Assembly (NCBI RefSeq): GCF_963675165.1
Contig: NC_087384.1
Location: forward strand, 2,561,315 to 2,625,314
From: Halichondria panicea
Lineage: Eukaryota
Length of the DNA stretch: 64,000 nt
Direction: 5' to 3'
Each line of letters begins with the position of its first letter. Position 1 is the stretch's first letter. A model generated the notes under the pieces. The model made no database searches. It saw only the letters and a program-made list of their open reading frames with translations, and was not told where the DNA came from. Shown here in pieces: positions 1 through 59,900 of the stretch. The translations under genes were made by a program, and so were the position numbers.

Positions 1-1559
1 TTGCAAAACCGCATGCAGTATTGCTGTGCCATCCTGTGGCTTACACGTCATCAAGTCGGTTAACACCCAATTGAGAATACTAATATTCATAGCAGTACTA
101 CATAATGCGCAGAACAAATTCCAGATAGGAGGCTTGCAACCCGACCTCCCGTCAGGGACGGTCGGGCTCCGCCCAACTACTTAGTTCCCTGAAATTGTGA
201 ATGTATTTGTGACTGTCAGAGGCTTCTCTTTTGCTGCCAACTTAAATGAAAAAGAAAACCATCAAGAAGTCCACTAGTTTGAGGCAATAACCATGATCAT
301 TCACATGACAAGATACATAATACACCATGTAACTTCCTTAATAATTGTTTTCACTTTTGATGAATCAATTGTACGAAGTTTCTATAGGCTGGTGAGCGTA
401 CATTTCAATTCCAATTTATTAAGTATAATTACATACACTTGGAGACAGCAAAACACTCCACAGCACTGCCAGTTGCTTTTTAAGTGTAAAACGAGTGGGA
501 TCAAACCGAACAATATTAACAAAAACTTACACGATAAAAATGATTATTATAGCTATAATTATGATTAGTTTAGCACTCTAATCAGACAGTCTTAGATGGA
601 GAGAAGCTGGTGAGGTATACAAGGGTGTATATATAGCCGGAACAGCCGATAACATTTACGAGGGCGGTGACGTGTAGGGGTGTAGAGAAGAGGGGTATTC
701 TTTTGTCTTCTTTTCTTCAGCATACTCAGTAAGTTTCGGCTTGCCAGGTATTGCTATATAAAATATAGATGAAACAGCATTTGTAGTAGATAAATATCTC
801 GGGCCTACATGCCCTTCACCACAATCTACTACCGGGCCAATAACAATTATGAGGTAAAAAAAGGTGGCTACACATTCAATCACACAAAAGCTATACATCC
901 ACCTGATCCAAAACTAATGCTCTTGGGGGAATGTATGCCTAAAATTTAAATTTCTGTAACGCTTAGCGTATTCCCAAAAAAGGGATCTTTAGTGGTGCTC
1001 TTTAATTCAACTTTTTTCTAGCACTAAATTCTACCAGCTGATGTATGACTAATTTTCTTTGGCTTGGGGTGATACCACATGATTTACCAACAAGCATATT
1101 GAAGTATACGATCTAAACATTTGTACAATACAAGATTAAACTTACCTAAATTCAATGAAGAAGATAGTTGCAACGGTAAATAGAGCTTAATGGTTATTCA
1201 CTATCTATATAAAGCACAGTTGCACTGGATACTGGAGAACTTGAATGACAGAATACTAGTGACAACTCATAAAATCCTAGATATTTGCAATAATCTCAGT
1301 TACCCGCGAAGTTCCTGGGGATCCGGGAATAGATTAGATCATTAGGCGAGGCGCGGATGTTTAATCGAGGTCATACGTGAGGTACATTGAAATCTACTCC
1401 GTTTCCAATCCCTCTATCTATGCTCTGATTAAAGAGGTCGTCAAAACATTTTCCAGTGGAAGCTCTGAGCGATCATCAAGTTACTAGAAACAACACAAAA
1501 CTAGTAGTCATTTTAAACTTCCAAAAACACTTCTAGCTCTGTGTTCTTACTCTTATATA

Positions 1560-32625: not shown

Positions 32626-35600
32626 ATGGAAATGGATGAGCAAGAGATCAAGGAAGGACTTAGTGTGAAGAGAATATTAGCCCAGTTCAAAAATGATGAA
32701 GGCCAACTGGTTGGCACACCTCTGGATCTACCAATCGACATAACACCAGAGTCACTGGCCATTCTCTGCAACGTTGTGCTGCAAGATGTAATAATTATTA
32801 AGCCTTTTACATTACACATGCTCGTGGACAAGCATTATAAATCTACACCAACTTGTACAAGGCAGTTAGTTTTTCAGAAGGTTACTTTGATCAGTTTCTT
32901 GCATCCATCAGTCTGAGTTATAGACATAGTCTCATACCCAACCTCTTTTTTGTCTGGGGGGAATATTCGAATGTGGAGAGTGTTAAATTGTCAGGCTAGC
33001 CTAGACACTACGAGCACCTTGAGAGACCTGTGCACAATATTGTGTGTTGATTGTTTGTTTAGGCGGATGGCAATGCATACGAGTTTTATGTGGATGATAT
33101 TGAGATCCGTGGCTCCCTGTCCAAGACGCTGGAGAGCATTGGCAAAGAGGAGAGGGAAAAGATGTTGGAGATACTCTATCAGCCGCAAGACAAGTTTAAA
33201 GTCAAGGCTGTCACCAGATGCTCCAGCAGCATACCAGGTGGGAGAGCTAGTGCAATACTAGTGCAATACTAATGGAATCATTATAAACTATTTGTATAGG
33301 ATATACCACACCTAAGAGGAGGATATATAGGGTGCATGTCCTCCGAGTAGGTGTGGCATATCTGACTTATACCACGTGACCGCAGCACTATAAAAGGACC
33401 TCCCCCTAGCAACAATTCAATCACGATGCAGACTGCAAAAAAAAAACAAGACTATGCTGGATTTTGCAGCCGTCAAAGAGCTAGTTGAGCAACATGTTGA
33501 CTCCTACAGATGCTCAAGAGTTTCCTTGGTCCAAGCGTTGACCATTCGACGTCCCTTACTGGAGTTGCAAGCTCTTCTTGGATAAAATGTATCTAAACCG
33601 CGCCCATGGACCCATGGAAGCTTTGCCATCTTGTTGGAGAGCACCTTCCGTGTTTCTGCCGTCGCTTTGAGTCTTAGTACCGTCAAGCATGGCTCTTTTC
33701 TCTTTGCTTACTTTCTTCAACAAATGAAAAAACTAAAAAACAACTTGAAAAACTGTGCATGCCTGGGGCTGTATGCTAATATTCTATATATCCTACAGCT
33801 GTTGACCAATGAGATCAATTTGTGGTGACGTAAGTGTGGTATAAGTACTAATAGAGGTCACCACCATTCTGTATACTGTCTGTTAATTGGTGGTTTAATG
33901 TCAATTCTGAATATGTTTCTGTTATAATTATAACTCCCACGTTACTAGTGGTGGCCGTTAGTGTAAAAAACCTTTTATTAACAGTACATTGTGTGCATGA
34001 TTGCCGGATTAATATTATGATAATTGGGATCATTCCCAGGTGGTGAAAGCTGACCTGGGTTGTGGCAGAAGAAGTAGTTGGCCCTTATGCCGTAATGGTT
34101 CTTAGAGTCTGTACATTTAAGAGTCCAGGCTGAGGTTGGAGACTCAGGAGGATTAGCCATAAATCCTTTTGCCGTTTCTCCTATATTCAGGTCACGGTGA
34201 GGCTGTAATTGCAGTGTGCTTCAGTCCTGACGGCCGTCAGCTGGCCAGTGGGTCGGGGGACATGACAGTCAGGTTCTGGGACGTCTTTACAGAGACACCA
34301 CTGCACACATGCAAGGCACACACTCACTGGGTGCTCTGCATAGCATGGTCACCAGACAGTAGGAAACTAGCTTCAGGCTGTAAAAATGGCCAGGTTAGTT
34401 GATTAACTGTTGACCACTACTCACCTCCCAATCATATCCTTGAATGAATCGATAGGATATGTAGCACATGCATCTTTTACATACAGTGCAGCTCTTTACA
34501 ATAATTATGTGTTCAACCTCAGGTTTGTATTTGGGACCCAGTCACTGGGAAGCAGATGGGTCACACTCTGATAGGCCACAAGCAATGGATAACATGGCTC
34601 ACTTGGGAACCACTGCACCTGTGAGTGGAAAATTGCATGCCAATGTACTACTGCGTGTATGCTTGCCTGACCTTTGAACCTAACGCGTTGCTAATATAAT
34701 GTACATTAGTGTTGAATGCTATAAATAACGTATTTGTGCTTCCCAAAGAGACCCTGAATGTCAGCTGCTTGCGAGTGGCTCTAAGGACGGAACAGTGAGA
34801 ATATGGAACGTAGCTCTGTATAAGACCACCCTCATCTTGTCAGGCCACACTCACAGTGTGACCTGCATCTTGTGGGGAGGGGAAGGTCTGCTATTCTCTG
34901 CATCACAGGACAGAACCATCAAAGTCTGGAGAGCTAAAGATGTAAGAATTTTTATGGAAGCGCAGAATCCCCAATTAATAGATACACTATTATAATAATT
35001 ATTAGACACTAAGTTGATAAAATCTACATGAGAAGGTACATGGGAAAAGGGTCTTAGAGGAGGTACATGTATACTACTGTATAGTGGGTTATTTTCGAGG
35101 CACTAAATATTCGCGGATTGCCCAAACTAAACATTTCGAGGATAGCGTAGTGGTTCAAATGACCGCGTCTCTACAGTGGAGAGTGTAAACCAATTTCGAA
35201 GCATTAAATGTTCGTGCCTCGAACATAACCAGCTATACAGCCCTGGTATAATTATGAGACTTAGCATATAACTTGTATCCCATTGTCAAGCAAAGTAAAA
35301 TTAATGTAGTAAGCCTCAAGACAAGGTTTGCACATGCACACTATACATATACTAGTATCTAAACGAGTTAGGCACTGTTTTGTTTTGTCGGTGTCCATGT
35401 AATTTAAAACTCTCAGCCACTTGTAGTACCCTCGCTACGCTGGGGATACTAAATCAGTGCCTTTGCACATGAGTTATTTATAACTGAAGTGATCCTGTAC
35501 CAGGAACAATGGAACAGGGTCACTAAAGTAGAAAGCTAGAATTATAGCTCCTGCTGCTTAGCCAATTTATTGTATAACACTCTTTTGGTTGCCTGTAGAT

Positions 35601-38600
35601 TTTTATTATTCATGTCAACAGCCGAGGGTTAGCACTTCAGTGCTCTAGTTTGTCTGTTTGTAATGTACGTGTTTGTAATGTACGTGTGAGTCTGCTTACC
35701 TTTATGTCATAGCACTGCGTTTACTGCATGCATATCCTTTACACAACAAGTTATTAGTTTTAATGGTGGCAGATTTTGATTTTAAAGCTTTGTTGTCGAA
35801 TAAAGCGAGCAAAAGCTAAGAAGCTTGAACTTGCACATTGGTAGCTATAGCTAAAGTACACGCCGCCTTTATTTGAGGTAAAGTACGTATTTACAGCTGA
35901 AGTGATCCCGTACCAGGAACAATGGAAAAGGGTTACAGTAGACTCGTTAATCTGGTCACCCTTGGGACCATGCAGCTTGGCCGGAATAGCGAGGTGGGAA
36001 ATAGCTGCGGCTTAAAAACGACCTTACCCTCGAATGTAATAACTAATTTAGCGGTTTTTGTCTCGAGGATAATGAAAAAAATTTCATTTTAGTATGAACA
36101 TTTCATTGACACAACAACAATGTTATAAACTGAGTAGATTAAAGAATGATAAGCACTAGAGCAATAAAGTGCTAACTCTCGGCTTGTGACCTGATTATAA
36201 AGAAACCAGCATCATCATGGTCTGTATAATGAATAGACATGCATGATAAACACTGGGAGCCTCAGGAGTTAATTGGACTAACCTCAACATTGAATCCACC
36301 TGGAAGTGTGAAATTCTCGTTGTATTGGGGTATGTTCATAATTGCAGGTATAAGATGTCGAATGCACACAACTGCTACTAGCATAGGTTCTGCGTGTGTG
36401 TTAGAATGTGAGTGTTGATTGAGGTACTATTATAGCAGGATATTTTCATGAGGTGCACATTTCGCGTTTTCGAGGGCAGAGCAGTTAACTCAAAAATTAT
36501 AACTGGGATAAACTCCCACGCACCGGTATTTCACATGCAAAGCTATTGGTCAGTGTGGTTTCCTGGCATTGAACTGCGAATATTACAACCCACGAATATT
36601 ATAACCCTCTTTTGGAGGCTCTGGAGCCAAATAACGGAAATGTACACCCGCGAACATTTCCCGCTATACGGTATAATTGTTTTGTTACAGTTCTAATTAT
36701 GTTGTACCATAATGCTATAAAATGTGAACTATAAATACTGTAGTTTGTAGCTTGCTTGAAAGTTTGGGACAAACACCCTATAGCGTTAATTTCGCAGTTT
36801 TACTTCGGTCATTTGAGCATTCTGCGGAATATTAATTTGATTTGTATATCCTAGGCTTTGGGAACTGCATTATGTATTGCACGACTTAGCATTAGATATA
36901 AACTTGTAACAGAAAAGAAACTGGAGTCACAAATTTAGAAGCCTGCATGGAATTATAAATTGCATGCGCGTTTGTAATAAAGCGCCTCAGATCAAAGCCG
37001 CGTGTTATGGACTCGAGGTTAACGCGGTACGAGGCGTATATATACCTAGCTAAACGCCATGCAAGTTCAAGCTTCTTAGCTTTTACTAGACAACAAAGCT
37101 GTCCACTAACTAATGTATTGAGGCTATCCATGCTGCTGTGAACGCACGCACCGCCATGGCATCTGGCATCCAGGTGAGCATGCAGGCTCAGAATCATGGA
37201 CACAGAGACCAGCGTGCTACTACATGTATAACCCGTGGCCACCTACGACGCCTTTGGCTAATAAGCATACTGATATTATGTAAACCTTTATCAAAATTAT
37301 TGCACAGTATTATTATAGTGTGTATTAGCATGTTGAGTATGAATGTATGTAGCGTACCGCCATATCTTTTCCAGCAGACCCATGATCTCGGTCCATCTGA
37401 GTATATATAATAAATTATTATAGTAATGAAAGCACCGCGGGTGCTGATGCCTCGGTGGAGGTGCCAAAGCTACATAACGTAAAGCTTTTATACACGCATT
37501 GATTATAATTATCATGATGAACATTTTTAATTTTGCTGTGCAATCGCAGGGAAACTCAAGTAGTGGGTAATGATCAACCATTATTGTTGTTAAAAACGAT
37601 CGATACCAAAAGTTCAAGATTAATGGCTGCAAGTCAGCAGAGCCTTGCAGCTCTCTTCTCACTCTTGCAGCTACCAGTAGCTAGCGTTCTAGTGCAGAGC
37701 TAACTACTAAGTAGAGTAGCAACACTCGGTGAACAAGTTTTGCTACGGACTCTTCTGAAAAGGCTGCAATGGCATTCCAAGTAAGCAAAACTAGGCATAA
37801 CTCGAGAACAAAACTTTGTTTTGCCAATCCACAAATAGCAAGCCAAGAAAACATGACTATAAGCCTATAAAGACTCTTACTTGCACTTCATTGATCCTTG
37901 AGCAGCTGTAGCAGTCTACACACAAACACACTACCGTATACCTCGCTTGCGCATGCGCACCGAGGCATAATTATGAAATAAAGTTATAATATCATGTTTC
38001 CGTTCCTCCACAGTGACTTCAAAGTTAGTGTGAGTACTTCTTCTAGTTGTTCCATACCTATCTAATCGTACAGTCATACACTAACTTACCCAGAGCTTGA
38101 AAAGAGTATTTGAAAATGGTAGAAAGAATAGTCCCAATCAATATTCCAATAAGAGCTCCACACACAAGGCTGATGAACATTAAACAGACAGGAAATGACG
38201 TGTCGGGGTTTTCATGTTGAAGAGCAGCAAATGCTGCTCCTAGTAAAGAATACCCTTCCGGTGTAAACAGTATCTTCCAAAATATAATGCTTCTTCTCGC
38301 ATATGTAATAATAATGGTTGCAAGATCTGTGTGTCAGTAAGCAGACATGGTAAATACATGTGGTATCCAGAGTAGATGTATTGGCAGATTCAGTCAATGC
38401 AGTAAATCAATGGTGTAGGGCCAATAATCGATAATCCCCACTGCGTTAAAAACACTGTAAGTACGTATAGAGATTAATTACATGGTTTAATTATGTACTA
38501 TATTGATCATAATTCTAATCAAGTTTTTCAGTTGTGTCAAACACAATACCAAAAATGTCTAAAACAATATCAGCAGCATCGAAGAATGCTTTCTAAATAT

Positions 38601-41600
38601 TTTAGAACTCACCGATTTGACATACTCTAAAGATAGCCGTAAGTAGTGAAAACACCATCTCAAACAGTGCAAGCACTATATATCCTAGGGATGCACCAAA
38701 TATAATGCCTAGTACAAGACCAGTAGCAGCTGAGAATGCAGGAAGATGTGAAACACTATTAATGGGACTGTATTGAGCAGCCAATTTTGTAGGACCAGCA
38801 ATGTTGCCAATCGCAGCTCCTAAGACGGTAAACATAGCAGGTATTATAGATGTGCTCAAAGATTGTCGTGAGCTGAGCGACCCTGTATATATTGTACCTT
38901 CCTGTGAGTAAATACTATTTTGCTCTAGTGCCTCAACTTGTTGTCGTGTCAAAGGAAACACAATATTTGCCACATGTTGTGGCATGGTGTAGATCAGTAT
39001 AACGGATCCTTTTTCCACTGCATGAAACTGAAGTGCTCCTCTTTCAGTTAACTCAAACACGTTACAAATTATCGTTGATATGTTTCGAATAGTGCTGATT
39101 CTCATTTGTCTGTATTTGCAGTCAATTAAAAAAACACACTGGTATCGATCGGTTGGACCAGCAACAATTCTGACATTATTACGGTGTAGTCTCGCCTTAC
39201 AGTATGTTTCCAGAGCAGCTTTGTAATCGTTTAATGATTTATTAATTTCCTGATCTCTTTTGCAAAATGTGTTGATAATTTTTTCTATTAGTCTAAAGTC
39301 AAACCATGAGTAATATCCACGCATACTTTCAAAAACGTCACGTACTGAAGAACATTTTCTCTTCATACGCCTTATATGTTTCTCATTGAAGAGCATACAT
39401 TTCCTTTTAGCATCGGTGTCCTGCGCTTGAAATGCTTTCAGTTCAGACAAGAAGAATATTAAATTTTGGTGCTCGTCTCGATCCCTGTTACTTGGTATTG
39501 ACATCATACCACTTGTTATGAGACTAGCAAATTGTCCCCGGATTTGTTCAGTTTGGAATTCCAAATCCTCTCCTCTACATGTAGAAGAAAATTGAGACAG
39601 TTCAAAAGAAGATTTAGATTTGACTTGGAAAGAATACAAATTGTCAGAGTCATCACCAGAATCACTTTCATCACAGTCACTGTCATCACTAGAATCAGAG
39701 CTATCAGTATCTGGTGGAACTAGTTGTTTATAGTTTTGTTTCAGCACATTCAAGCTAGCTTTTAGCCACACTTCTTCTTCAAGGATATTAATAATGTCTG
39801 TGTATATTGAAGAATCAATCTTAACTTTATTCATCATTACATCAACAATTCTTTTAGCATGTTCTATACGATCGTGAGATTCATTGCTGAGGTAAGAAAC
39901 ATCTTCTTGAGACCAGATGCCTAGTGGTGTTAAGGCAGTCCTGATACCTCCAGGTGATTGTTGTATACCCTTGACTAATTTGTCATAGCTTCTTTCTAAA
40001 GCCTTGTGTTCGGGATGAGTGTGTACTAGAATGGCCGTAGACTGTCCAACCATTAGTTTGTGTGCCACAACCATTAGTTTGTGTGCCATAAAATCCACAC
40101 AGCACAATAACATGTGAAGGAGCTGTTTAAGAAATCTATACAAGAATGCACAATCCATATTTAGTGAAATCAATAGAGCTTAGAAAACTGATCAAGCTAT
40201 GTACATGTAATATAATATATAAGGCTAATGTTTAGAACCTGATTAGAACGAGAGTCTTGTATGACCTTTTGTCCTTGATAAGGGCTTTATTGTTTCTCGC
40301 CGTAAGACCAGTTGTTTGTTCTGAATACACTCGTAGCACGGTATGTATGTTATCTAGTACGAAACTTTATACAGAAAGGTTATCAAGTATCAGGTATGAC
40401 TCAGCAAATACGTATGTGAATATACTCGTCCCATATATGGTTTTTGTTTTCGTGAATATCGATCAATTATGTAACTTGAAGCGTTGTTGTTTTTAGATTG
40501 TAATTTTCTGATGTCTCGATCTCCTTTCTATAGGGTGTCCTGTGTCGAACTCTCCAGGGTCACGGTCACTGGGTGAACACCATGGCACTGAGCACAGACT
40601 ATGCACTGAGAACAGGAGCGTTTGATCCGGCTGACAGGGCATTGGAGCACATTGGCATACAGGGAATGTCATGTGAGTGTCATACTCTCTCTAGCTTGAA
40701 TGACAGGTTGGTTAGAACAATACTTGTCTGTACACAGACCCAGTATACGTAAAACAGGCTTACATGCATGGTTGTATTTTACGGTTCCTAAAAGGCGGTG
40801 AAGTTTGGTATCTGTGTGCAAGGGAGTGTGTGAACAATTAATTACTTCAACATTCGATCTATTAACTGTCGTACAGTGTTAGTATGAGTTAACAAGTTAG
40901 TATGAACAAGTAAAATTGCCAAGCCGGATAATCGAGGTTCCAGAGTATAATAGAGAGACATATTCTACTATACTAATTTAGGTTTTGCAATTATTTTTAT
41001 TGTTGCGAATTGATCAAGGGCGAAAATCGCATGCTCAAAAAAATATTCTAGTAATAATTATATGGTAGTCACAAGATTTGAGTCTTGCAATTTTGCAGCT
41101 GCGGAGTTGAAAACTAGAGCGCTGGCAAGATACAACTCACTAAAGGTACGCTCCTTTTTATGACTATGTGTAAGACAAACTCACAGTATGCTCTCTCTCC
41201 AGGGCACTGAGCCTGAAAGAATGGTGTCAGGGTCTGACGACTTTACACTATTTCTGTGGCAACCAGGAGAGAGCAAGAAGCACCTAGCTAGAATGACAGG
41301 TTGGTTAGAACAATACCTCAGACCCTGACAAAATGTATGTACGTAAAACAGGCTTACATTAATAGCTATTAAGTGAATTATGATCCTTACCGTTTTTCTT
41401 TCCATAAGTAAGTACGCTCTCCATATTTATGTATTGTGTATTGTATGTAGCCGTGGGCTGTGCTATACGTATCTATAATTACGCCAGTATAGATTACAGT
41501 AACATTATTAATTTGTTACAAGATCTTAGAGCTTAAGTGTACATTACTCAAATTCCTACCCCCCCCCCCCCAGGCCACCAACAGCTGATTAACGAGGTGT

Positions 41601-44600
41601 GCTTTTCTCCCAATGGGAGACTGATAGCGAGTGCCTCATTTGACAAGTCAGTAAAATTATGGGACGGAAAGACAGGAAAGTGAGTGACCATTTTACTGCT
41701 ACGGTGTTTTGCGAGTGGAAATTAAACCTCTGCGAAATTTGGCGCTCTATACATGTATTAAAAGAATGTTTTGTGATTTGCTATCAGGCAAGGATTTTTA
41801 TATGCAAGTACTATAATAGCTCTGATTTTTGTTGAAATACCATAAAATCGCATGTTTGCAAAACATTGTTACGTATGTAGTAATATGCACAGTTCATGTA
41901 TACCTCCTTAAAGTACATGTATGACTCATCCTGAGTTTAATGCAAAAAATATTAATGAAAGTGACAAGGTTTTTCTAGAGAGGCCGGCCGGTATGCATAG
42001 GCAGCCTCGGGGTATACTAGTCCTTTTGTATATTTGTCTGTGTATTCTGAGTCTTCACTAGATGCCATATAGCTCTTCGTTTGCAGCATGAATAGCCTAA
42101 ACACAACAAGTTGTTAGTTTTAACAGTGAAAGATTACTTTGTCAAATAAAAGCGAGCAAAAGGCTACATGTAAGAAAGATTACCTTGCGCATTGGCTATA
42201 GCTACGATGTAGGTAGATCTAGCTAACGCGGCTTTAGTTCGAGGCAATGCCATTACACATGTGCACTACCGCCACAGAGGAGGTTGGCCATGCGTCATCA
42301 ATCATGTGACATTCCTAAGGTCTCTGCTCGCGTTATCATAGATACCGTTAAAAAGTTATGGCTACTCTTGCTTTGCTGAGCTTATAACACATATAACACA
42401 TGACTAGCTGTGTCTGTTGATTGGCTGGACCAAGATTAGAGGATAGAGTATAGTTTAGCGGTGCTGTATGCAGCTTGCACTATACATATATAGTGGCTGG
42501 CAAGAATCTAGTAAATACTGTATGCACTGATATCTCGCCAGAATAGAAGGGATAGGGTTGGTTAATGATATCAAAACAAGCCAGGGAGACACAAAGTTTG
42601 CCTTCAGTCTCTAATGACTGTGCAACACCAACTAGAAGTTACATACAACTCATTGTCAATTTTTGTGCCAGCTCAGTAAAAAAAAGTGGTGCACGTGATC
42701 GTGTCCAACCTCCTCTGCTACTGCCATATGGAGCCCTGTTTCTTTCATGGGAAGATACTCCAGGTTTTTTTTGCTGTTTCTACCCCGGTTTCAGTGTACG
42801 CATGCCTGCAGGTACCCTGTTCGTGACAATCTAGGTTTCTCTGCTGTCCCATGCAGTGCACGTCTGTGACCATGCATGCACCCTTACCAGTCACGTTCAT
42901 ATCTGATTTTCCTTCATAATTATAGTTTAGTTTCGTTACCCTGTTAGTTGCTGCTATATATTTTCTCTGCTATAATATGTTCCCATGTTCATTCAAAACT
43001 ATATATTACTGCTTTTCACATATTTTTTACGTCATAATTATGTTGTTGTAGGGCACTATTACATGCATATATATAATGTAACTGACAAGGGTTTCTCAGT
43101 GTTCTAGTTATCTTAATTATCACATGCATGGTTATAATGCTACAAAAACGGTCTCATAGATTATATAAATTACACTGGAGTCTCGGAAGTGGTGTCATTC
43201 TTGTTCTCTGTCTCCGAATCTGAAAGGTTTAACTCAACGACTTTCACCACTAAGTCTTCATACGATCGATGTTTTTCTATTTGGCTGTCTTGATTGTGCT
43301 CTTGTTTCGAGTCATCACCTTCTTTCTCTTTTGTGCCTTCTACGTCGGGCTTTTTTTCATCTTCATCATTAACCAGCACACTCCACGGGGTAGCAACGAC
43401 TAGTACGAAAATTGATGCAATCCCAAACGCCTCTATAAAAGTTCCATAGACGGCAAAATCTCTGTACCTTACAAAAGCCATTGAAAGGGCTGCAGCTACC
43501 AGCAAAATGATAACAGGAGATTGCTGGATAATGATGGCTATCAGTCGATAGGCTCTTTGATTACAGCATCTTTTGAGCACTTTATAGCAGGCTAGTATAA
43601 TCATACCACCAAACTTCATCGTGTAGATGCCGTACGTTAGAGTACCTCCTGCCAAGCCAACAGCATCCCCCACGCTGTACACAAATTCAAAGCAGATAAT
43701 TCGATCGGTTTCAGTCACATTATCACAACTAGTGATAGGTGTTCTCTGCCAACCCCTCGTAGCATCTGTGGTTCCTATAAAGCATATTTTCTTGTCGTCA
43801 CATTCGATTGTCCTCTCAATAAGAAACCTCTCCCATAGAGCTAGTAAAGAGCTCATTAGCAGTGTGAATGCGTTCAGCCTCAACATTAGAGCAAGCCACG
43901 ATAGTTGAGTTTGTCTCCAATTATCGTCCATCTCTTTGACTCCATATTGACTCTCTTTCTTGAGAAAAGCTGTTATGTTTTTGTCTGATTCTCCATACAG
44001 AGTGAATACTATTGTGTTCACTTTCTCTGCTATCCACTGGTTGATCCTTCTCACCTTTGTGTTAGGCTTTTCCTTATTCTTCTCCTTTGGAGCTTTGTGT
44101 CTCCTTTGACCACAGGTTACACGGTATGTAATGTAGATAGGATATATGAAGGCAATACTAAGATATAGAACCATGCCAAAAGCTGCATACAAAGTAGCCA
44201 GTGGTAAGACATCCAATAGTTCCAGTGTAAGAAGAATGTAGCTTGGCTCCATGTCTTTTGCTGGCAGCAGTTACACAAGAACTGTAGTAGTCAAAAAAAG
44301 TCAGTACTAGATTCATATTCTACTGCTCTGAACCTTGGACTATAATTATATCTATGGGCTGTCTGTGGTGTCATTAGTGTAAAGTCATATATTCCAGTGA
44401 GAATGCCGTGGTTACGGAATTCTATAGCTGTTTAATGTGGTTATGACATGAATAATACTGCGATGGTGACCTAGCTTTGATATATGGCCTGTTTATAGGT
44501 GTGGTGTGACCATTGTACAAATAATATTATAGCCTTTCAGTCTGAGATACAATTACATGGGGAAGTATGTGAAAAGGCAATTAAGCTACACATCAAGTGA

Positions 44601-45359
44601 AAAGGCAATTAAGCTACACATCGAAGTAGTGCCAATCCTAGTAGGCTTTAAAAAATACTGAAACAGTTTTAGTGACCACACAAATGAATTTATGAACACA
44701 GAGTGACTATAGCTGTGTTATCAATCAACCTAGCTTACAATTCTTGCTCCACATTTTTCACTTTGTATTGCATTGCAGGTTTTTGTCTAGTCTAAGAGGT
44801 CATGTCAGTGCAGTGTATCAGGTCAGTAGGTCAGTCCATGTGTGTGTAAATTGCTGGTGTCATGGCAGTTATCTCTGCTGCAGATTGCTTGGTCAGCAGA
44901 CAGTCGACTTCTGTGCAGTGGCAGCTCTGACAGTACACTAAAGGTAATCTACTCAGTCTGTATGCATACACCTTACAGTCACGTTACATGTATATACTAG
45001 CTCCTAAATACATTGTAGGAAGCTGGTGTACTCATAGTGATTATTTGGGAGTGCCTTGGATTCCAGGTTCTAGTTATGCCAGGACCAGTACTTTGTTACT
45101 TGTTTAAATCCAATTTTTATATGCTCGATCTGCATAAGATAATTTCTTGGTTTAGATGTACACAGTGCAACTGTATACGTATTAATTCATAATGATGATG
45201 TAAACGTAATTATTGTACATTGTCTAGGTGTGGAATATTCGAGAGAGGAAATTACTAATGGATCTGCCCGGTCACGCAGACGAGGTGTTTTCTGTAGATT
45301 GGAGTCCTGACGGTGAGAAAGTGGCCAGCGGAGGACGTGACAAAGTACTCAAATTGTGA
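32626..45359 (+). CDS. NLE1: Notchless homolog (WD40, ribosome biogenesis), 484 aa. Twelve exons: 32626..32787, 33063..33237, 34191..34393, 34523..34620, 34749..34941, about 40534..40672, about 41119..41165, about 41203..41299, about 41574..41679, 44779..44821, 44884..44943, about 45228..45359.
   Basis: The N-terminus is MEMDEQEIKEGLSVKRILAQFKNDEGQLVGTPLDLPIDITPESLAILCNVVLQD, matching human [42 protein letters not shown]. The WD repeats are near-identical to human NLE1. Examples are [129 protein letters not shown] and LPGHADEVFSVDWSPDGEKVASGGRDK. The exon lengths sum to 1455 nt, or 485 codons, and human NLE1 is 485 aa. Confidence 0.93.
35093..35228. mobile_element. Small MITE-like element with terminal inverted repeats, in NLE1 intron 5
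   Basis: The 5' end reads ttcgaggcactaaatattcgcgg and the 3' end reads cgaagcattaaatgttcgtgcctcgaa. These are inverted complements. Confidence 0.55.
37425..37968 (+). mobile_element. MITE-like TIR element, family copy A, in NLE1 intron 5
   Basis: The start reads taatgaaagcaccgcgggtgctgatgcctcggtggaggtgcc. The end reads cctcgcttgcgcatgcgcaccgaggcataattat. The termini are inverted (cctcggtg and caccgagg). Internal spurious ORFs are 36892..37242 and 37297..37662. Confidence 0.8.
38090..40158 (-). CDS. Uncharacterised protein, at least about 600 aa, nested antisense in NLE1 intron 5. It has a death-fold-like helical N-terminal domain, an acidic Ser/Asp tract, a central domain of unknown family, and C-terminal glycine-zipper transmembrane helices. 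Exons resolved: 38613..40158 and 38090..38326. The 3' terminal exon is unresolved.
   Basis: A 523-codon ORF occupies 38602..40173; the first ATG is at about 40158. The N-terminal domain is HKALERSYDKLVKGIQQSPGGIRTALTPLGIWSQEDVSYLSNESHDRIEHAKRIVDVMMNKVKIDSSIYTDIINILEEE. The acidic tract is PPDTDSSDSSDDSDCDESDSGDDSDN. A transmembrane region is GAAIGNIAGPT...AATGLVLGIIFGASLGYIVLALFEMVFSLLTAIF. The donor ATCG|gtgagt at 38613 leads to the acceptor acacag| at 38326. That next exon encodes ...LLGAAFAALQHENPDTSFPVCLMFISLVCGALIGILIGTILSTIFKYSFQALG and ends with the donor G|gtaagt. Confidence 0.65.
43170..44252 (-). CDS. Uncharacterised multi-pass membrane protein, 360 aa, single exon, nested antisense in NLE1 intron 9
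   Basis: An ATG-initiated ORF. It has predicted transmembrane helices (LPLATLYAAFGMVLYLSIAFIYPIYITY, LSWLALMLRLNAFTLLMSSLLALW, LIAIIIQQSPVIILLVAAALSMAFV and FIEAFGIASIFVLVVATPW). A Cys-containing loop reads ECDDKKICFIGTTDATRGWQRTPITSCDNVTETDRIICF. The C-terminal tail is acidic. Confidence 0.6.
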   Translation of the reverse strand: MEPSYILLTLELLDVLPLATLYAAFGMVLYLSIAFIYPIYITYRVTCGQRRHKAPKEKNKEKPNTKVRRINQWIAEKVNTIVFTLYGESDKNITAFLKKESQYGVKEMDDNWRQTQLSWLALMLRLNAFTLLMSSLLALWERFLIERTIECDDKKICFIGTTDATRGWQRTPITSCDNVTETDRIICFEFVYSVGDAVGLAGGTLTYGIYTMKFGGMIILACYKVLKRCCNQRAYRLIAIIIQQSPVIILLVAAALSMAFVRYRDFAVYGTFIEAFGIASIFVLVVATPWSVLVNDEDEKKPDVEGTKEKEGDDSKQEHNQDSQIEKHRSYEDLVVKVVELNLSDSETENKNDTTSETPV

Positions 45360-49745: not shown

Positions 49746-50126
49746 CCTCCTCTGGGATTGAGCACACTGCAAACCTATAATAATTATAGGCTTTTCGATT
49801 TGTCGATTAGTTTATGCACACAGCTAAGGCGGTATAAATATTGTATAATTATGTGATGGTCTTGTAGTATTCTATTGAACAATATAGAACAAGGGGACTG
49901 AGTTTTTATTAGGTTTGAGCATTGTACATATACATGCAATCACAATCACTCTGACTATAGTTAGAGGGATTGGAAACAAAGGGACCTTTGAGCTTTGAGT
50001 AACATCTGCGCTACACTGCGGTTTAATCGAGGCCATCACAACAATACCTATTTCTACACACAGAAACCACGCTTGTGCAACTCACTCCGTGCTCATTTAT
50101 ATTTCAAGGTCTAGCGTAGTAGTTCT

Positions 50127-50565
50127 GCCTCGGTGCGCATACGCAAGCGAGGTATACGGTAATGTGTCTGTTTGCGTAGACTGCTATATACAGCTACTAA
50201 AGGATCAATGAAGTGCAAGTAAGAGCTTCTATTCATGTTTTCTTGGATTTTAATTCGTGGATTTGTAAAGTAATGCTTTGTTCTCTGGTTATGGCTACTT
50301 GGAGTGTTGCTACGCTACTCTACTTAGTAGTTATAGCTCTGCACTAGAATGCTATATAGCTGCAAGAGTGAAGAGAGCACTAATGCAGCAGCCATTAATT
50401 TTAGACTTTCATCATCAATCATGGTCGATCATTTCCCACTCTTTTACAGAGTAGCCTGCTATAAAGAGCCCTTGCCCGCAAGAACATTATGATGTGTGTA
50501 TTAGCAAGCAGCTTTACATATCCACCGAGGCACCAGCACCCGCGGTACTTTCATTATTCACGTGG
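50127..50565 (-). mobile_element. MITE-like TIR element, family copy C, internally shortened. It overlaps the 3' end of the NUDT9-like gene.
   Basis: gcctcggtgcgcatacgcaagcgaggtatacggtaatgtgt lies near 50127. atccaccgaggcaccagcacccgcggtactttcattattca lies near 50521. It is homologous to copies A, B and D. Confidence 0.75.
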
Positions 50566-55968: not shown

Positions 55969-56886
55969 ATGAAGCTGGTTGATGAGTTGCAGGGCGAAAC
56001 TGAAGGTATTCAAAGAACAAACTTCTTTAGACGAAATACGAGAATAAAGTAAGGGAATTAGGTAGAATGCTTTGGCATTATTTTGTATACAATAATTATA
56101 TAGGAGCAAAAAATCTGAGAGTGAAATTTTCATCAGTGACGTGTTAGTGATTGGATACAAGAAGAAGGAGAGAGTGTTTGTAAGTATGGCTTGTATTGCC
56201 TAAGATTGTTATAACAAATGTACACTGTGGCAGGTGTATGTAATTCACACGACATGGTCTGATGGACAACGATTTGAGATCTACCGTCGCTATGGGGAGT
56301 TTTTCACCTATGATGACCGACTACTGCAGCTGTTTCAAACGGAAGGAAGCAAGATCGATAAAGTACTTCCCACTCTACCAAGTAAGTCACATCGATATAC
56401 TTGAAGAAATAAGCTACCCGTGCAGTACCAACACTAATGAAAGCACCGCAGGTGCTGATGCCTCGGTGGAGATGCCAAAGCTACATAACATAAAGCTACT
56501 AATAGCTTTCCACAATCATGCATGCAAACTCAATGACCGGCCATGATTGTTGTTAAAAACGATCGATGCCAAAAGTTCAAGTCTAAAATTAATGGCTGCT
56601 GTCTGCAGCGCAGAGCCTTGCAGCTCTCTTCTCACTCTTGCAGCTACCAATAGCTAGCGTTCTAGTGCAGAGCTAACTACTAAGTAGGGTAGCAACATTC
56701 GGTGAACAAGTTTGGCTACGTGCTTTTCTGAAAAGGCTGCAATGGCATTCCAAGTAAGCAAAACTAGGCATAACTCGAGAACGAAGCATTATTTTGCAAA
56801 TCCACGAATTAAACCCAAGTAAACATGGCTAGAAACCTATAGAAACTCTTACTTGCACTTGATTCATCCTTGAGCAGCTGTAGCAG

Positions 56887-56952
<66 letters not shown>

Positions 56953-59900
56953 ATCTGTATACCTCGCTTGCGCATGCACACTGAGGCATAATTATTACAA
57001 ATGCTATACAGTGTAGCACTCGTTATAATTTCATTTTCAGATATTGACAATGTGCTGAGTTTATTTGGTCGTACTAACAATGAACATGTTATCAAGCAAA
57101 GACTGGGGACTATCAATGACTACTGCCAGGTAAACAACTTGACTCCCTTCTCAACTGTAAATGGAAGTCCATTGCAAATGTGTACTCAGCATAGGGCCTT
57201 AACCTTATATTATTTCTATCACTATAATTAGTATACGTATTGTTTGCAGATTCTCCTTTGTGAATTGGATGTGATGATATCTAGAAACGATTTTGTTCTC
57301 AGTTTCTTTCGACCTCAACCAGGAGATAGACAGCTGCAAAAGTGTGTTTGTAAATTTTATAAATATACAGCTTTTACACATTTTCGTTTATACACAGCCT
57401 AGCCAAATCCAGAACTGAATCCGAGTTGGGTATGTCCATCATCTCTGTCTACCCTCAACAAGTTCCTGCAGGTACGAACACACATGTACATGTACTGCAG
57501 CCTTCTACTAGCGAGAAATACGATGAACACATGAAAACATTCAATTGTAATTGGTCGAGTGGATATCACGGTTTATTTTGTGTGATAATTGCAAAGGTGT
57601 ACACGTAGATTATTTAAAATGACCTCCCGTGTTCTTCTATACAGGCAGTACATTTGAAGAGTATGTCACACTGGCTGACTACAAACCAAAATCTGAGGGA
57701 GAGCTGTCAGTGAAGGCTGGGGAGGTGGTAAAGGTCATCAACAGAGAAGCTACTGGTAAGAAAAAACCAACTTTAATTGTGGAGCATACATTGACAAAAA
57801 TAATAGCGGCTCCTTTATACGATAGAGTGTATGACACTGTTGTCTCGATACTTACATCTTTGTAAAGGTTGGTGGATGGTCAGCCAGAGCCCGGAGTGTG
57901 AAGATGGAGAGGAGAGGGTAGGCTACATACCCGGGGACTTCCTCAAGAGATACGACCCAACTCAAAATGTAGACGAAGATTCAATAAAGAATTACCTTGG
58001 TTTCGTGTCTCCAGCTGCGCTTACTGATAGTGCTAGAGCAGACGTGGACTCCGCACTGAAGTATGTGGCTATTGAGGACTATACGTCTGACGATCCTCGC
58101 CAGCTGTGTTTCACTGAAGGGACACAAGTAATAGTCATTGAGAAGAGTGAAGATGGTAATTATACGTGTGTAAAATTGTGTAGGTTCTAAATTGTGTATG
58201 TTGAAAATTACTCGTACTGTAAGTAATTTTCATGCATTATTTTGTACTACGCATCTATGTAAAAATTATGCATGAGCATACTTTTAGGGAATACAATACA
58301 TTGACCAGCATGCAGTTCCTGCTGAACCTAAATTTAACTCAGTTGCTGTTGTCCAGCTATGGTCCTCCATTGCAGTTTACTTTGTTTGTACAGGATGGTG
58401 GTTAGTAGCAGCTGGTGGTCGACATGGCTGGGCTCCTGCATCGTACTTGGAGCCCATGGACAGAAGAATATATCCGGAGGGAGAGGGTAAGTTCTAGGAA
58501 GCACATCATTAAAGCTGCATCAGTTGCACAAAGAGGTCTTCCATATATATTGCATGTAATAATTATAGCCTCTGCCTCACACCATAAAAGTTTTCTAATT
58601 GAGAAGTCAAATCTATCACAAACAAATAGATAGATCTATATCATTAATTTTATACACTTGTACAGATTTGTTTGTCTCAATGAGAATAATGGACGTTGTC
58701 AGCGGAGAGAAATACGTGACTAAAGCTGCCTTCAAAGGAGAAATTGAAGAAGACATCTCTTTTCCCGAGAAGGCCACCATTGAAGTGATTGAGAAGTCCA
58801 TCAGTGGCTGGTGGATGGTCAGGTGATCAGTAAACTGCAAGGCTGTATAACAGAACACAATAATAAATGACTGATGTTGTCGTTTCAGTAACCACGTGCG
58901 GTCTTTAATTGTTTAACTTCCTCTATGCGTTACTGTCTGTTACAATGGTTACATCTGCAATTATCTCTTCGGAGGATGTCTTTGTTCAAAAATGAAAGTG
59001 TATCTTTTGTGCGTCAATGTTCATTTATGATTAATGCAGGCACAAGGGAAAGATTGGAATGGCTCCTGCTTCCATGCTAGCTCTCACAGAGTCACAACTC
59101 AATGTACCTGGAGAGTACAAATTTGCAATGACAGTGGTACGTAGCAATCAGTACCTTTCAATAGTACATGTACGTAAATACATTCCAGTAACAATTTATA
59201 ATGACACAGGATTTGGGACATGGCGTGTCTGGAATCATCCAACCTCCACCAAGAAGGTAAGAAGAATTTATGTATAATTGTAGAATGCCAAGCATGCCTT
59301 GTAAGTGGATGATTAACTGTAATGTCGTTGCTAGCGTAACTATTACATTACTCTTGATTTTGCAGCAAGAGGTTTCTCCTGCTGAGTCAGTCCCACCGTC
59401 GCCAACGATCCAACACTAACACGGACGAAAAGAATTTTGAAACGTTGTTTGAAGAAGGACACACACCCTGCAGTAGCTCGTCCAATTCAGATAATAGCGA
59501 TATTGAGACAAAGCATTCGTCGATGAGCAAACATGTGAGAAAGCATGTTATTACAAATGAAAAACGACGACGAAAATTCAAATCATTCTTGCATGTACGT
59601 CCTGATGACATCAAGTCAAAACGGTCGAGTTCCATGTCTCAGCAGGACAAAAGAGCAACTCTACCTGCATCCCTTATGCAGAGATCATGGGGAGCAAAGA
59701 AACTCGATTTTAAAGGAATGGAGGTGTTTATCGGAGAAAATTCTCCACTAGAAGCGAAAAAAGGCTCTTTTCCGAGCAAACCAAGATCTTTAAGCAATGA
59801 CGAACTGCTAATGGGCTCCTTAATGAACCGCGAGACGCAGGGTAAAGGTACCCCGTCAGATCAACCAGAAGATTTTCTTCATCACAATGATAAGCTACCA

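Follow-up and report, generated by a model that had tools for sequence, protein, structure and literature searches.

LOC135339445 of the sponge Halichondria panicea encodes a member of the death-fold and TRADD-N family with predicted transmembrane helices

What kind of protein is encoded by the long open reading frame (ORF) that runs antisense within an intron of the Notchless gene (NLE1) of Halichondria panicea, and does it belong to a family that is already known? The locus was analyzed in a window of 64,000 nucleotides (NC_087384.1, positions 2,561,315 to 2,625,314 of the forward strand), to which all positions below refer. The initial annotation described the gene as novel and its product as a protein of no nameable family, with a death-fold N-terminus, an unrelated middle domain and three small-xxx-small helices.

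The 523-codon ORF (38602..40173, minus strand) opens with an in-frame TTG, and its first ATG, at 40158, gives a product of 518 aa; for DNA of ~38% GC, this length is far beyond chance. The ORF matches RefSeq XP_064391612.1 ("uncharacterized protein LOC135339445", isoform X1, 651 aa), which is the exact translation of the five spliced exons listed in Table 1. All introns are of the GT..AG type. The exon-1 donor (CAAATCG/GTGAGT, after 38613) and the second exon, both predicted from the letters alone, are identical in the RefSeq model, and the frame read without splicing meets a stop 3 codons past this donor. The suggestion that the terminal exon runs into a MITE at 37425..37968 had to be abandoned: this interspersed repeat is non-coding and forms part of intron 2, and three tiny, featureless exons complete the 3' end. 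For exons 2-5, the RefSeq model is the source of transcript support. Several independent assemblies carry the same ORF with a few allelic substitutions and the frame kept. LOC135339445 is a real protein-coding gene of Halichondria panicea, annotated in RefSeq but uncharacterised.

A tblastn search with human NLE1 placed Notchless exons on the plus strand at 32665-34941 and 40534-45356, and the whole of LOC135339445 sits antisense within the intron between them, as had been proposed. In two relatives examined for the same nesting, NLE1 was absent from the contigs, which says little since the contigs are short and the relatives are related at the paralogue level only. The location within NLE1 is most likely a by-product of the dispersal of a large gene family.

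Table 1. Features of LOC135339445 and its host intron, in window coordinates.
Feature	Residues (aa)	Position	Strand	Remark
LOC135339445 isoform X1, complete CDS		36195..40158	-	Halichondria panicea, RefSeq
LOC135339445 exons		40158..38613, 38326..38090, 37396..37358, 36389..36283, 36221..36195 (incl. stop)	-	
N-terminal extension, non-conserved	1-45	40024..40158	-	contains tandem duplication
CARD-type death-fold domain	~48-146	39721..40017	-	
Acidic Ser/Asp tract DTDSSDSSDDSDCDESDSGDDSD	150-172	39643..39711	-	read from sequence
DED-like helical bundle	~196-325	39184..39573	-	family motif YYSWF(D/N)..LIE.II.TFC
TRADD-N domain, NCOA6 clade	~336-420	38899..39153	-	beta-alpha-beta-beta-alpha-beta
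GAAIGNIAG segment, marginally hydrophobic	433-456	38791..38862	-	doubtful TM helix
Long hydrophobic stretch	481-515	38614..38718	-	strong TM core LVLGIIFGASLGYIVLALF at aa 481-499 (GIIFGASLG)
Second strong TM helix VCLMFISLVCGALIGILIG (GALIGILIG), exon 2	562-580	38133..38189	-	coordinates checked by translation
NLE1 host intron, ~5.6 kb		~34942..40533 (approximate)	+	NLE1 exons end 34941 (aa ~276), resume 40534 (aa ~277)

Neither a Pfam search with the single ORF (nothing at E<=1) nor phmmer against PDB sequences (noise only) identified a domain, and the domain calls rest on family profiles and the predicted structure. Both kinds of evidence, structure superposition and family profile, upheld the view of the N-terminus as a death-fold bundle and showed it to be a CARD. 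The AF2 model contains a confident N-terminal bundle of six antiparallel helices, ~90 aa long, of CARD type and superposable on solved CARDs. An 87-sequence alignment of the N-terminal domain compared with 9 classical CARDs reached an hhalign probability of 95.9% (E 6e-9, 72 columns). Pfam CARD matched 15 of 143 family members, with a best E of 4.8e-7, and members made of the N-terminal domain alone matched it at E 0.004-0.04; the LOC135339445 sequence by itself is under the Pfam CARD threshold. Against PDB sequences, the family profile retrieved ICEBERG alone at E 0.065, plus spurious ALIX coiled-coil matches. The CARD is preceded by an extension that includes the 21-bp perfect tandem duplication noticed earlier (40047-40088, AHKLMV twice). 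Homologues begin right at the CARD, without these 45 aa, and isoform X2 starts at Met16; since the extension is not conserved, the true start codon is uncertain.

The acidic Ser/Asp cluster pointed out in the initial annotation contains four DxxD motifs and lies within a disordered, low-complexity linker (aa ~147-195; pLDDT <50 at aa 161-193 in the AF2 model); the linker of homologues is variable and Ser-rich. The ~230-aa middle part that follows, previously called unrelated, is composed of a DED-like bundle and a TRADD-N domain (PF20694, hhalign). In the predicted structure, aa 196-325 form six helices, with solved DEDs as the closest structures. Pfam DED matched neither LOC135339445 nor family members nor the family consensus, hhalign against the FADD DED and PEA-15 gave a probability <1%, and the R-x-D-L motif was not seen in this region when it was inspected by eye. 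The term "DED-like", adopted from the label that Kaur et al. gave to the Amphimedon paralogues, is used here as a structural call only.

The TRADD-N region has an RRM-like two-layer alpha+beta sandwich with a four-stranded sheet, and DSSP of the AF2 model agrees. Comparison of the family with the published TRADD-N alignment by hhalign gave a probability of 98.1% (E 1.4e-13, 85/92 columns), and the match held for the Amphimedon rows (98.8%) as well as the non-sponge rows (96.4%, E 1.1e-9). An HMM built from the published alignment scored LOC135339445 at 23.7 bits (aa 370-416) and matched no other ORF of the window. In Pfam, PF20694 scored the family consensus at 25.3 bits, above its cut-off of 23.7, and matched 8 family members; PF13820 (NCOA6_TRADD-N) gave the consensus an E of 0.017. 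The uS motif of the beta2-beta3 turn (a tiny residue followed by Ser or, in some cases, Cys) is represented by G384-S385, which aligns with NS or GS of reference TRADD-N sequences. G384 is invariant across the seven sequences of an alignment termed A1; in most paralogues, the pair reads G-C. The comparison of the family with TRADD proper by hhalign was negative.

A profile search of public sponge-associated assemblies recovered 2342 family representatives at E<=1e-3, 1067 of them at E<=1e-10, with the two domains found both together and apart. Conservation in alignment A1 covers the CARD and the DED-TRADD-N unit but not the C-termini, which are of unrelated kinds (TM, coiled coil or CARD); this pattern matches the architecture rule of Kaur et al. 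2021. About 300-350 such proteins were described computationally from Amphimedon (Kaur, Iyer, Burroughs & Aravind 2021, eLife 10:e70394), including 91 with CARD+DED+TRADDN-NCOA6, 13 with TRADDN-NCOA6+TM and 4 with CARD+DED+TRADDN-NCOA6+TM; the slot after TRADD-N is variable and usually holds sensor or effector domains, the TRADD-N superfamily was proposed to be a protein-protein interaction switch, and the CARD.aln supplement consists of oyster-specific CARDs (eLife 10:e70394).

LOC135339445 shares with the NCOA6-clade TRADD-N expansion of Amphimedon queenslandica the domain order (Death-like, DED, TRADD-N and a variable C-terminus, here TM), the FPL(T/S)..Q..L motif and the G(S/C) turn. It differs in having a single CARD without an extra Death domain and a tail without detectable relatives, and it was not identified as the orthologue of any catalogued Amphimedon protein. 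Both species are demosponges but belong to different orders, Suberitida and Haplosclerida. In LOC135339445, one 1.5 kb exon encodes the CARD-DED-TRADD-N unit together with the first TM helix, and the remaining tail is on small separate exons; this layout fits the constant-plus-variable diversification of the family. LOC135339445 is one more member of the catalogued sponge death-fold and TRADD-N family, not a new kind of protein.

For the tail, two of the three proposed helices stood. The GIIFGASLG core at aa 481-499 (Kyte-Doolittle 2.46, Hessa sum -1.9) and the GALIGILIG helix at aa 562-580 (Kyte-Doolittle 2.69, Hessa sum -2.7) are strongly hydrophobic, and AF2 places a helix at 478-515; GAAIGNIAG proved marginal (Kyte-Doolittle maximum 1.58, simplified Hessa sum +4.0, pLDDT 30-40). 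By these simple hydrophobicity scales, which are not a trained predictor, the spliced protein has at least two predicted transmembrane helices, with 71 aa beyond the last strong one; AF2 models the tail with low to medium confidence. The tail matched no Pfam family, and a word search of 5.8 billion proteins found no homologues of it, a weak negative for a hydrophobic query, as the protein's own cluster was also missed. An internal repeat of the exon-1 and exon-2 TM regions was considered and dropped (tblastn E 0.85 and 2.2, not significant). Two hydrophobic helices follow TRADD-N in P0021 (38% identity), which of the full-length relatives whose C-terminus was recovered is the closest, and tail anchors terminate other CARD proteins of the family.

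Parts of this architecture are found in other known systems. DEDD2 (DEDD/DEDD2, FLAME-3) likewise pairs a DED with TRADD-N, vertebrate TRADD is an adaptor that combines TRADD-N with a death-fold domain, as here, and vertebrate NCOA6 carries the founding member of the TRADD-N clade of LOC135339445; compared by hhalign with the N-terminus of human NCOA6, the family reached 80% (E 1.4e-5), and the turn motif was aligned in register. DEDD/DEDD2 and NCOA6 differ, however, in being soluble nuclear or nucleolar proteins without a CARD or TM region, encoded by single-copy conserved genes. The initial annotation was also reminded of MAVS and BinCARD, and this likeness may be kept as a functional analogy but not as membership. 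Sequence matches to MAVS or BinCARD were not found, and the CARD is structurally no nearer to MAVS than to the CARDs of caspase-9, Dronc or Apaf-1. MAVS and BinCARD are without a DED or TRADD-N; conversely, neither TRAF motifs nor a proline-rich region could be recognised in LOC135339445, and its tail, with at least two predicted TM helices, differs from the single C-terminal tail anchor of MAVS and BinCARD-2.

Taken as a whole, LOC135339445 is probably a paralogue within the sponge expansion of Death-like, NCOA6-clade TRADD-N and variable C-terminus proteins, and a membrane-tethered adaptor. Its most likely role is that of a membrane-anchored death-fold adaptor in innate immunity or apoptosis. 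As the protein lacks a signal peptide, its CARD, DED and TRADD-N would face the cytosol, and the C-terminal helices would anchor it in a membrane. By homotypic interaction, the CARD, perhaps together with the DED, may recruit other death-fold proteins, such as caspases or NLR/STAND proteins, or co-polymerise with them. TRADD-N, flanked by the constant death-fold part on one side and the variable tail on the other, could act as an interaction switch via its Gly-Ser turn. Tethered to a membrane and serving innate-immune or apoptotic signalling, such an adaptor would be analogous to MAVS in function and independent in origin.

The glycine-zipper tail may instead be an effector, with oligomerisation of CARD and DED leading to a membrane-perforating assembly of helices and cell death, comparable to Bcl-2-type proteins and to multi-TM effectors found in bacterial conflict systems. 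This reading, which we regard as unlikely, draws on the position of the tail, where proteins of the family usually carry sensors or effectors, and on its helices rich in small-xxx-small motifs, which favour helix-helix packing; but ordinary TM helices often have such motifs too, no known pore-former is similar, and in other members a GTPase or coiled coil is followed by just one plain tail anchor at the C-terminus, which looks like anchoring. Marginally less likely again is its most specific form, in which the multi-TM tail is a new membrane-disrupting death effector that the TRADD-N switch activates once CARD/DED polymerise. If true, sponges would combine sensor, adaptor and executioner in one self-contained polypeptide that has no relation to gasdermin, MLKL or Bcl-2.

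We find it decidedly improbable that LOC135339445 is a decaying or non-functional paralogue, a recent duplicate in the NLE1 intron whose ORF is still open, whose C-terminal exons are fortuitous and whose product has no role. In its favour are the huge size and fast evolution of the family, the lack of conservation in the first 45 aa with their fresh 21-bp duplication, the tiny and featureless last three exons, a tail for which no homologues were found, and the stop that the unspliced frame meets shortly after the donor. Nevertheless, every conserved family position is kept, including the GS and YYSWF..FC motifs, AF2 folds both globular parts at very high confidence, and the 651-codon frame is intact over five exons with canonical splice sites and is maintained in the alleles of other assemblies. 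The lack of Pfam and PDB sequence matches for the single sequence might suggest an adaptor that belongs to no family, in which a death-fold N-terminus and a TM anchor flank a new and unrelated centre. This reading can practically be dismissed, as the centre consists of a DED-like bundle and a TRADD-N domain, the architecture is catalogued and the gene is annotated.

As a probable membrane-tethered adaptor of the sponge family, LOC135339445 leaves existing knowledge unchanged, being an annotated gene whose domains can now be named. It extends the CARD-DED-TRADD-N expansion of Amphimedon to a second demosponge order, with >2000 distinct representatives in sponge-associated assemblies, and membrane-tethered versions recur in the family. 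To our knowledge, experiments on proteins of this family have yet to be reported. A simple membrane-anchored member would be a reasonable entry point to the possible use of MAVS-like membrane platforms for death-fold signalling in early animals and to the role of TRADD-N as a putative switch.

The minus-strand open frame of 523 codons (38602..40173) appears in the ORF list of the window and lies in DNA of ~38% GC; its first ATG, at 40158, gives a product of 518 aa. When 5.8 billion proteins were searched with a word index, a near-identical 518-aa entry was retrieved, scored at 100% identity in spite of two substitutions (T120R and S504L), along with a relative of 31% identity. Clustered with the 518-aa entry are two RefSeq proteins, XP_064391612.1 ('uncharacterized protein LOC135339445 isoform X1', 651 aa) and XP_064391614.1 (isoform X2, 636 aa), both from the breadcrumb sponge Halichondria panicea (Demospongiae, order Suberitida). 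Five exons with GT..AG borders throughout were translated and reproduced isoform X1 exactly; therefore, the donor of exon 1 and the second exon proposed in the initial annotation are right. The 3' end, which had been left open, is formed by three further small exons, and the repeat into which it was suspected to run is noncoding and lies in intron 2. With intron 1 kept unspliced, the product would end in ...QIGEF, three residues past the first hydrophobic stretch, and would correspond to a classical tail-anchored form.

Features of LOC135339445 and its surroundings (nucleotide positions in the window; aa numbering of isoform X1).
Feature	Position	Strand	Basis or remark
Exon 1	40158..38613	-	tblastn + explicit reconstruction
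Exon 2	38326..38090	-	tblastn + explicit reconstruction
Exon 3	37396..37358	-	tblastn + explicit reconstruction
Exon 4	36389..36283	-	tblastn + explicit reconstruction
Exon 5	36221..36195	-	tblastn + explicit reconstruction
Notchless exons	32665-34941 and 40534-45356	+	tblastn; human NLE1 query
Tandem duplication, 21 bp	40047-40088 (aa 24-37)		perfect
Interspersed repeat, ~540 bp	37425-37968		intron 2
Further repeat copies	56436-56989, 25514-26094, 50126-50378		70-79% identity
Direct repeat, 49 nt	35475-35523 and 35888-35936		90% identity, 413 bp apart
Inverted repeat, 28 nt	35808-35835 / 37060-37087		96% complementary, 1.2 kb apart
Strong TM candidate	aa 481-499, LVLGIIFGASLGYIVLALF		exon 1; Kyte-Doolittle + simplified Hessa scale
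Strong TM candidate	aa 562-580, VCLMFISLVCGALIGILIG		exon 2; Kyte-Doolittle + simplified Hessa scale
Marginal hydrophobic segments	aa 433-456, 497-515, 609-628		Kyte-Doolittle + simplified Hessa scale

The whole gene is nested antisense within the NLE1 intron of ~5.6 kb between 34941 and 40534, as initially described. NLE1 was absent from the contigs of two relatives; the contigs are short and the relatives distant, so nothing suggests that the nesting is conserved or meaningful. The first ATG of the nested gene is only ~375 bp away from the adjoining NLE1 exon on the opposite strand, and therefore the promoter or 5' UTR of LOC135339445 may overlap NLE1 exon sequence in antisense. The intron 2 element is an interspersed repeat of which the window contains three further copies. 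Its weak terminal inverted repeats (24 nt, 75%) leave the earlier label 'MITE' plausible but unproven. The direct and inverted repeats in the NLE1 intron are probably more fragments of repeat elements.

The 21-bp tandem duplication sits in an N-terminal extension of 45 aa that is common to no homologue. Isoform X2 starts at Met16, and the true start codon may lie further downstream, e.g. at Met36. Residues 13-32 are hydrophobic but include Asp, His and Lys. The duplication was also observed in P0007, a protein from another assembly, with one substitution (AYKLMV/AHKLMV).

The N-terminal domain, previously and correctly called death-fold-like, is a CARD. The AlphaFold2 model from a 143-sequence alignment showed a pLDDT of ~98 for aa 50-150, and the CARD proteins listed with it were Dronc, Apaf-1, MDA5, CED-3, RIG-I, BCL10 and NOD1. 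The profile of the family N-terminal block matched a profile built from nine classical CARDs at 95.9% (E 6e-9). Pfam CARD matched 15 of the 143 family members, including, at sub-threshold E-values, single-domain members made of this block alone. The acidic tract was found at aa 150-172; the acidic linker is disordered in the model (pLDDT <50) and contains four DxxD motifs, and a role for it as a caspase or CK2 target is speculative.

The middle region had been regarded as an unrelated domain, which did not hold. A separate AlphaFold2 model of aa 190-428 was compact and confident (pLDDT 85, pTM 0.81). Solved DEDs are the nearest structures to its helical half (aa ~196-325), where no DED match at the sequence level was found and the RxDL motif is absent; therefore, it is named DED-like. 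In the alpha/beta half (aa ~336-420), strands and helices alternate as beta-alpha-beta-beta-alpha-beta, as in an RRM-like fold, and structural matches were to ferredoxin-like domains, including that of beta-dystroglycan. Pfam TRADD-like_N (PF20694) matched eight family members and scored 25.3 bits on the family consensus, above the 23.7-bit gathering cut-off, with PF13820 (NCOA6_TRADD-N) second, and hhalign against the human NCOA6 N-terminus gave 80% (E 1.4e-5). An HMM from 35 rows of the published TRADD-N alignment (supplement of Kaur et al. 2021) gave 23.7 bits at aa 370-416 and no other match among 1549 ORF pieces of the window (next best E 3). The tests against this alignment are the most decisive evidence; its profile-profile comparison with the family covered nearly the full domain at 98.1% (E 1.4e-13), and gave 96.4% (E 1.1e-9) after removal of all sponge rows and 98.8% with the Amphimedon rows alone. 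The hallmark 'uS' motif at the beta2-beta3 turn is G384-S385 here and G-C in most paralogues; Cys replacement is mentioned by Kaur et al. 2021 (PMC8195603). These comparisons identify aa ~336-420 as a TRADD-N domain.

The protein belongs to a very large family. A search started with the 31% identical relative added five more, and the seven-sequence alignment showed an N-terminal conserved block of ~100 aa, a second of ~230 aa (R207-I416; motifs YYSWF(N/D), FC, YC..RL and G(C/S)VEL), variable Ser-rich linkers between them and mutually unrelated C-termini. When the HMMER profile was run in full against 1.84 billion cluster representatives, 2342 proteins passed E<=1e-3 and 1067 passed E<=1e-10, with the two blocks together as well as apart; within the window, the LOC135339445 product is the sole member. 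Ten representatives looked up all trace to assemblies in ENA or Logan, where they presumably stand for sponge DNA within metagenomes of the holobiont. In P0040, a 1213-aa protein on a 480-kb ENA contig, a single DED-TRADD-N unit is preceded by nine CARD-like repeats in tandem that are nearly identical; the number given for Amphimedon is far lower ('1-3 death-like domains'; Kaur et al. 2021, PMC8195603).

The C-terminal tail is hydrophobic. Two of the three small-xxx-small helices initially proposed were retained by the hydrophobicity scales, while GAAIGNIAG is marginal and doubtful. The tail matched no Pfam family, and the word-indexed search with the C-terminal 234 aa returned no homologue at E<=1; this is a weak test because the protein's own cluster, sharing 94 identical residues, was also missed, and the same caution applies to TM-rich queries there. 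P0021, a 38% identical relative, has two hydrophobic helices past TRADD-N. Three other relatives, P0094, P0108 and P0122, each end in a single strong tail anchor; therefore, membrane tethering of the family CARD recurs across architectures. These three keep the CARD and lack the TRADD-N unit, having instead a coiled coil or, as in P0108, an AIG1-type GTPase.

The globular domains would be cytosolic, because no N-terminal signal peptide was seen, and the tail would serve as a membrane anchor. Other death-fold proteins would be brought in by the CARD and DED via homotypic interaction, and TRADD-N would be the switch for interactions that Kaur et al. proposed. The main alternative is that the tail with its two strong TM candidates does not anchor the protein but perforates membranes as an effector; the recurrent tail anchors among relatives are consistent with anchoring. 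A decaying paralogue is a minor alternative, to be set against an intact five-exon reading frame.

The initial observation is thus borne out, and its interpretation in part, for the death fold and TM helices; the claim of novelty did not stand, the gene being annotated in RefSeq. The largest NCOA6-clade TRADD-N expansion is that of the sponge Amphimedon, with 357 proteins (307 non-redundant), and the architecture table contains 'CARD+DED+TRADDN-NCOA6' 91 times, 'TRADDN-NCOA6+TM' 13 times and 'CARD+DED+TRADDN-NCOA6+TM' four times, with XP_019854903.1 and XP_003389740.1 ('CARD+TRADDN-NCOA6+TM+TM') as example proteins (Kaur, Iyer, Burroughs and Aravind, eLife 2021, PMC8195603). Thus, the architecture was already catalogued in another demosponge, and the protein is a Halichondria addition to a known family, itself described by computation and untouched by experiment.
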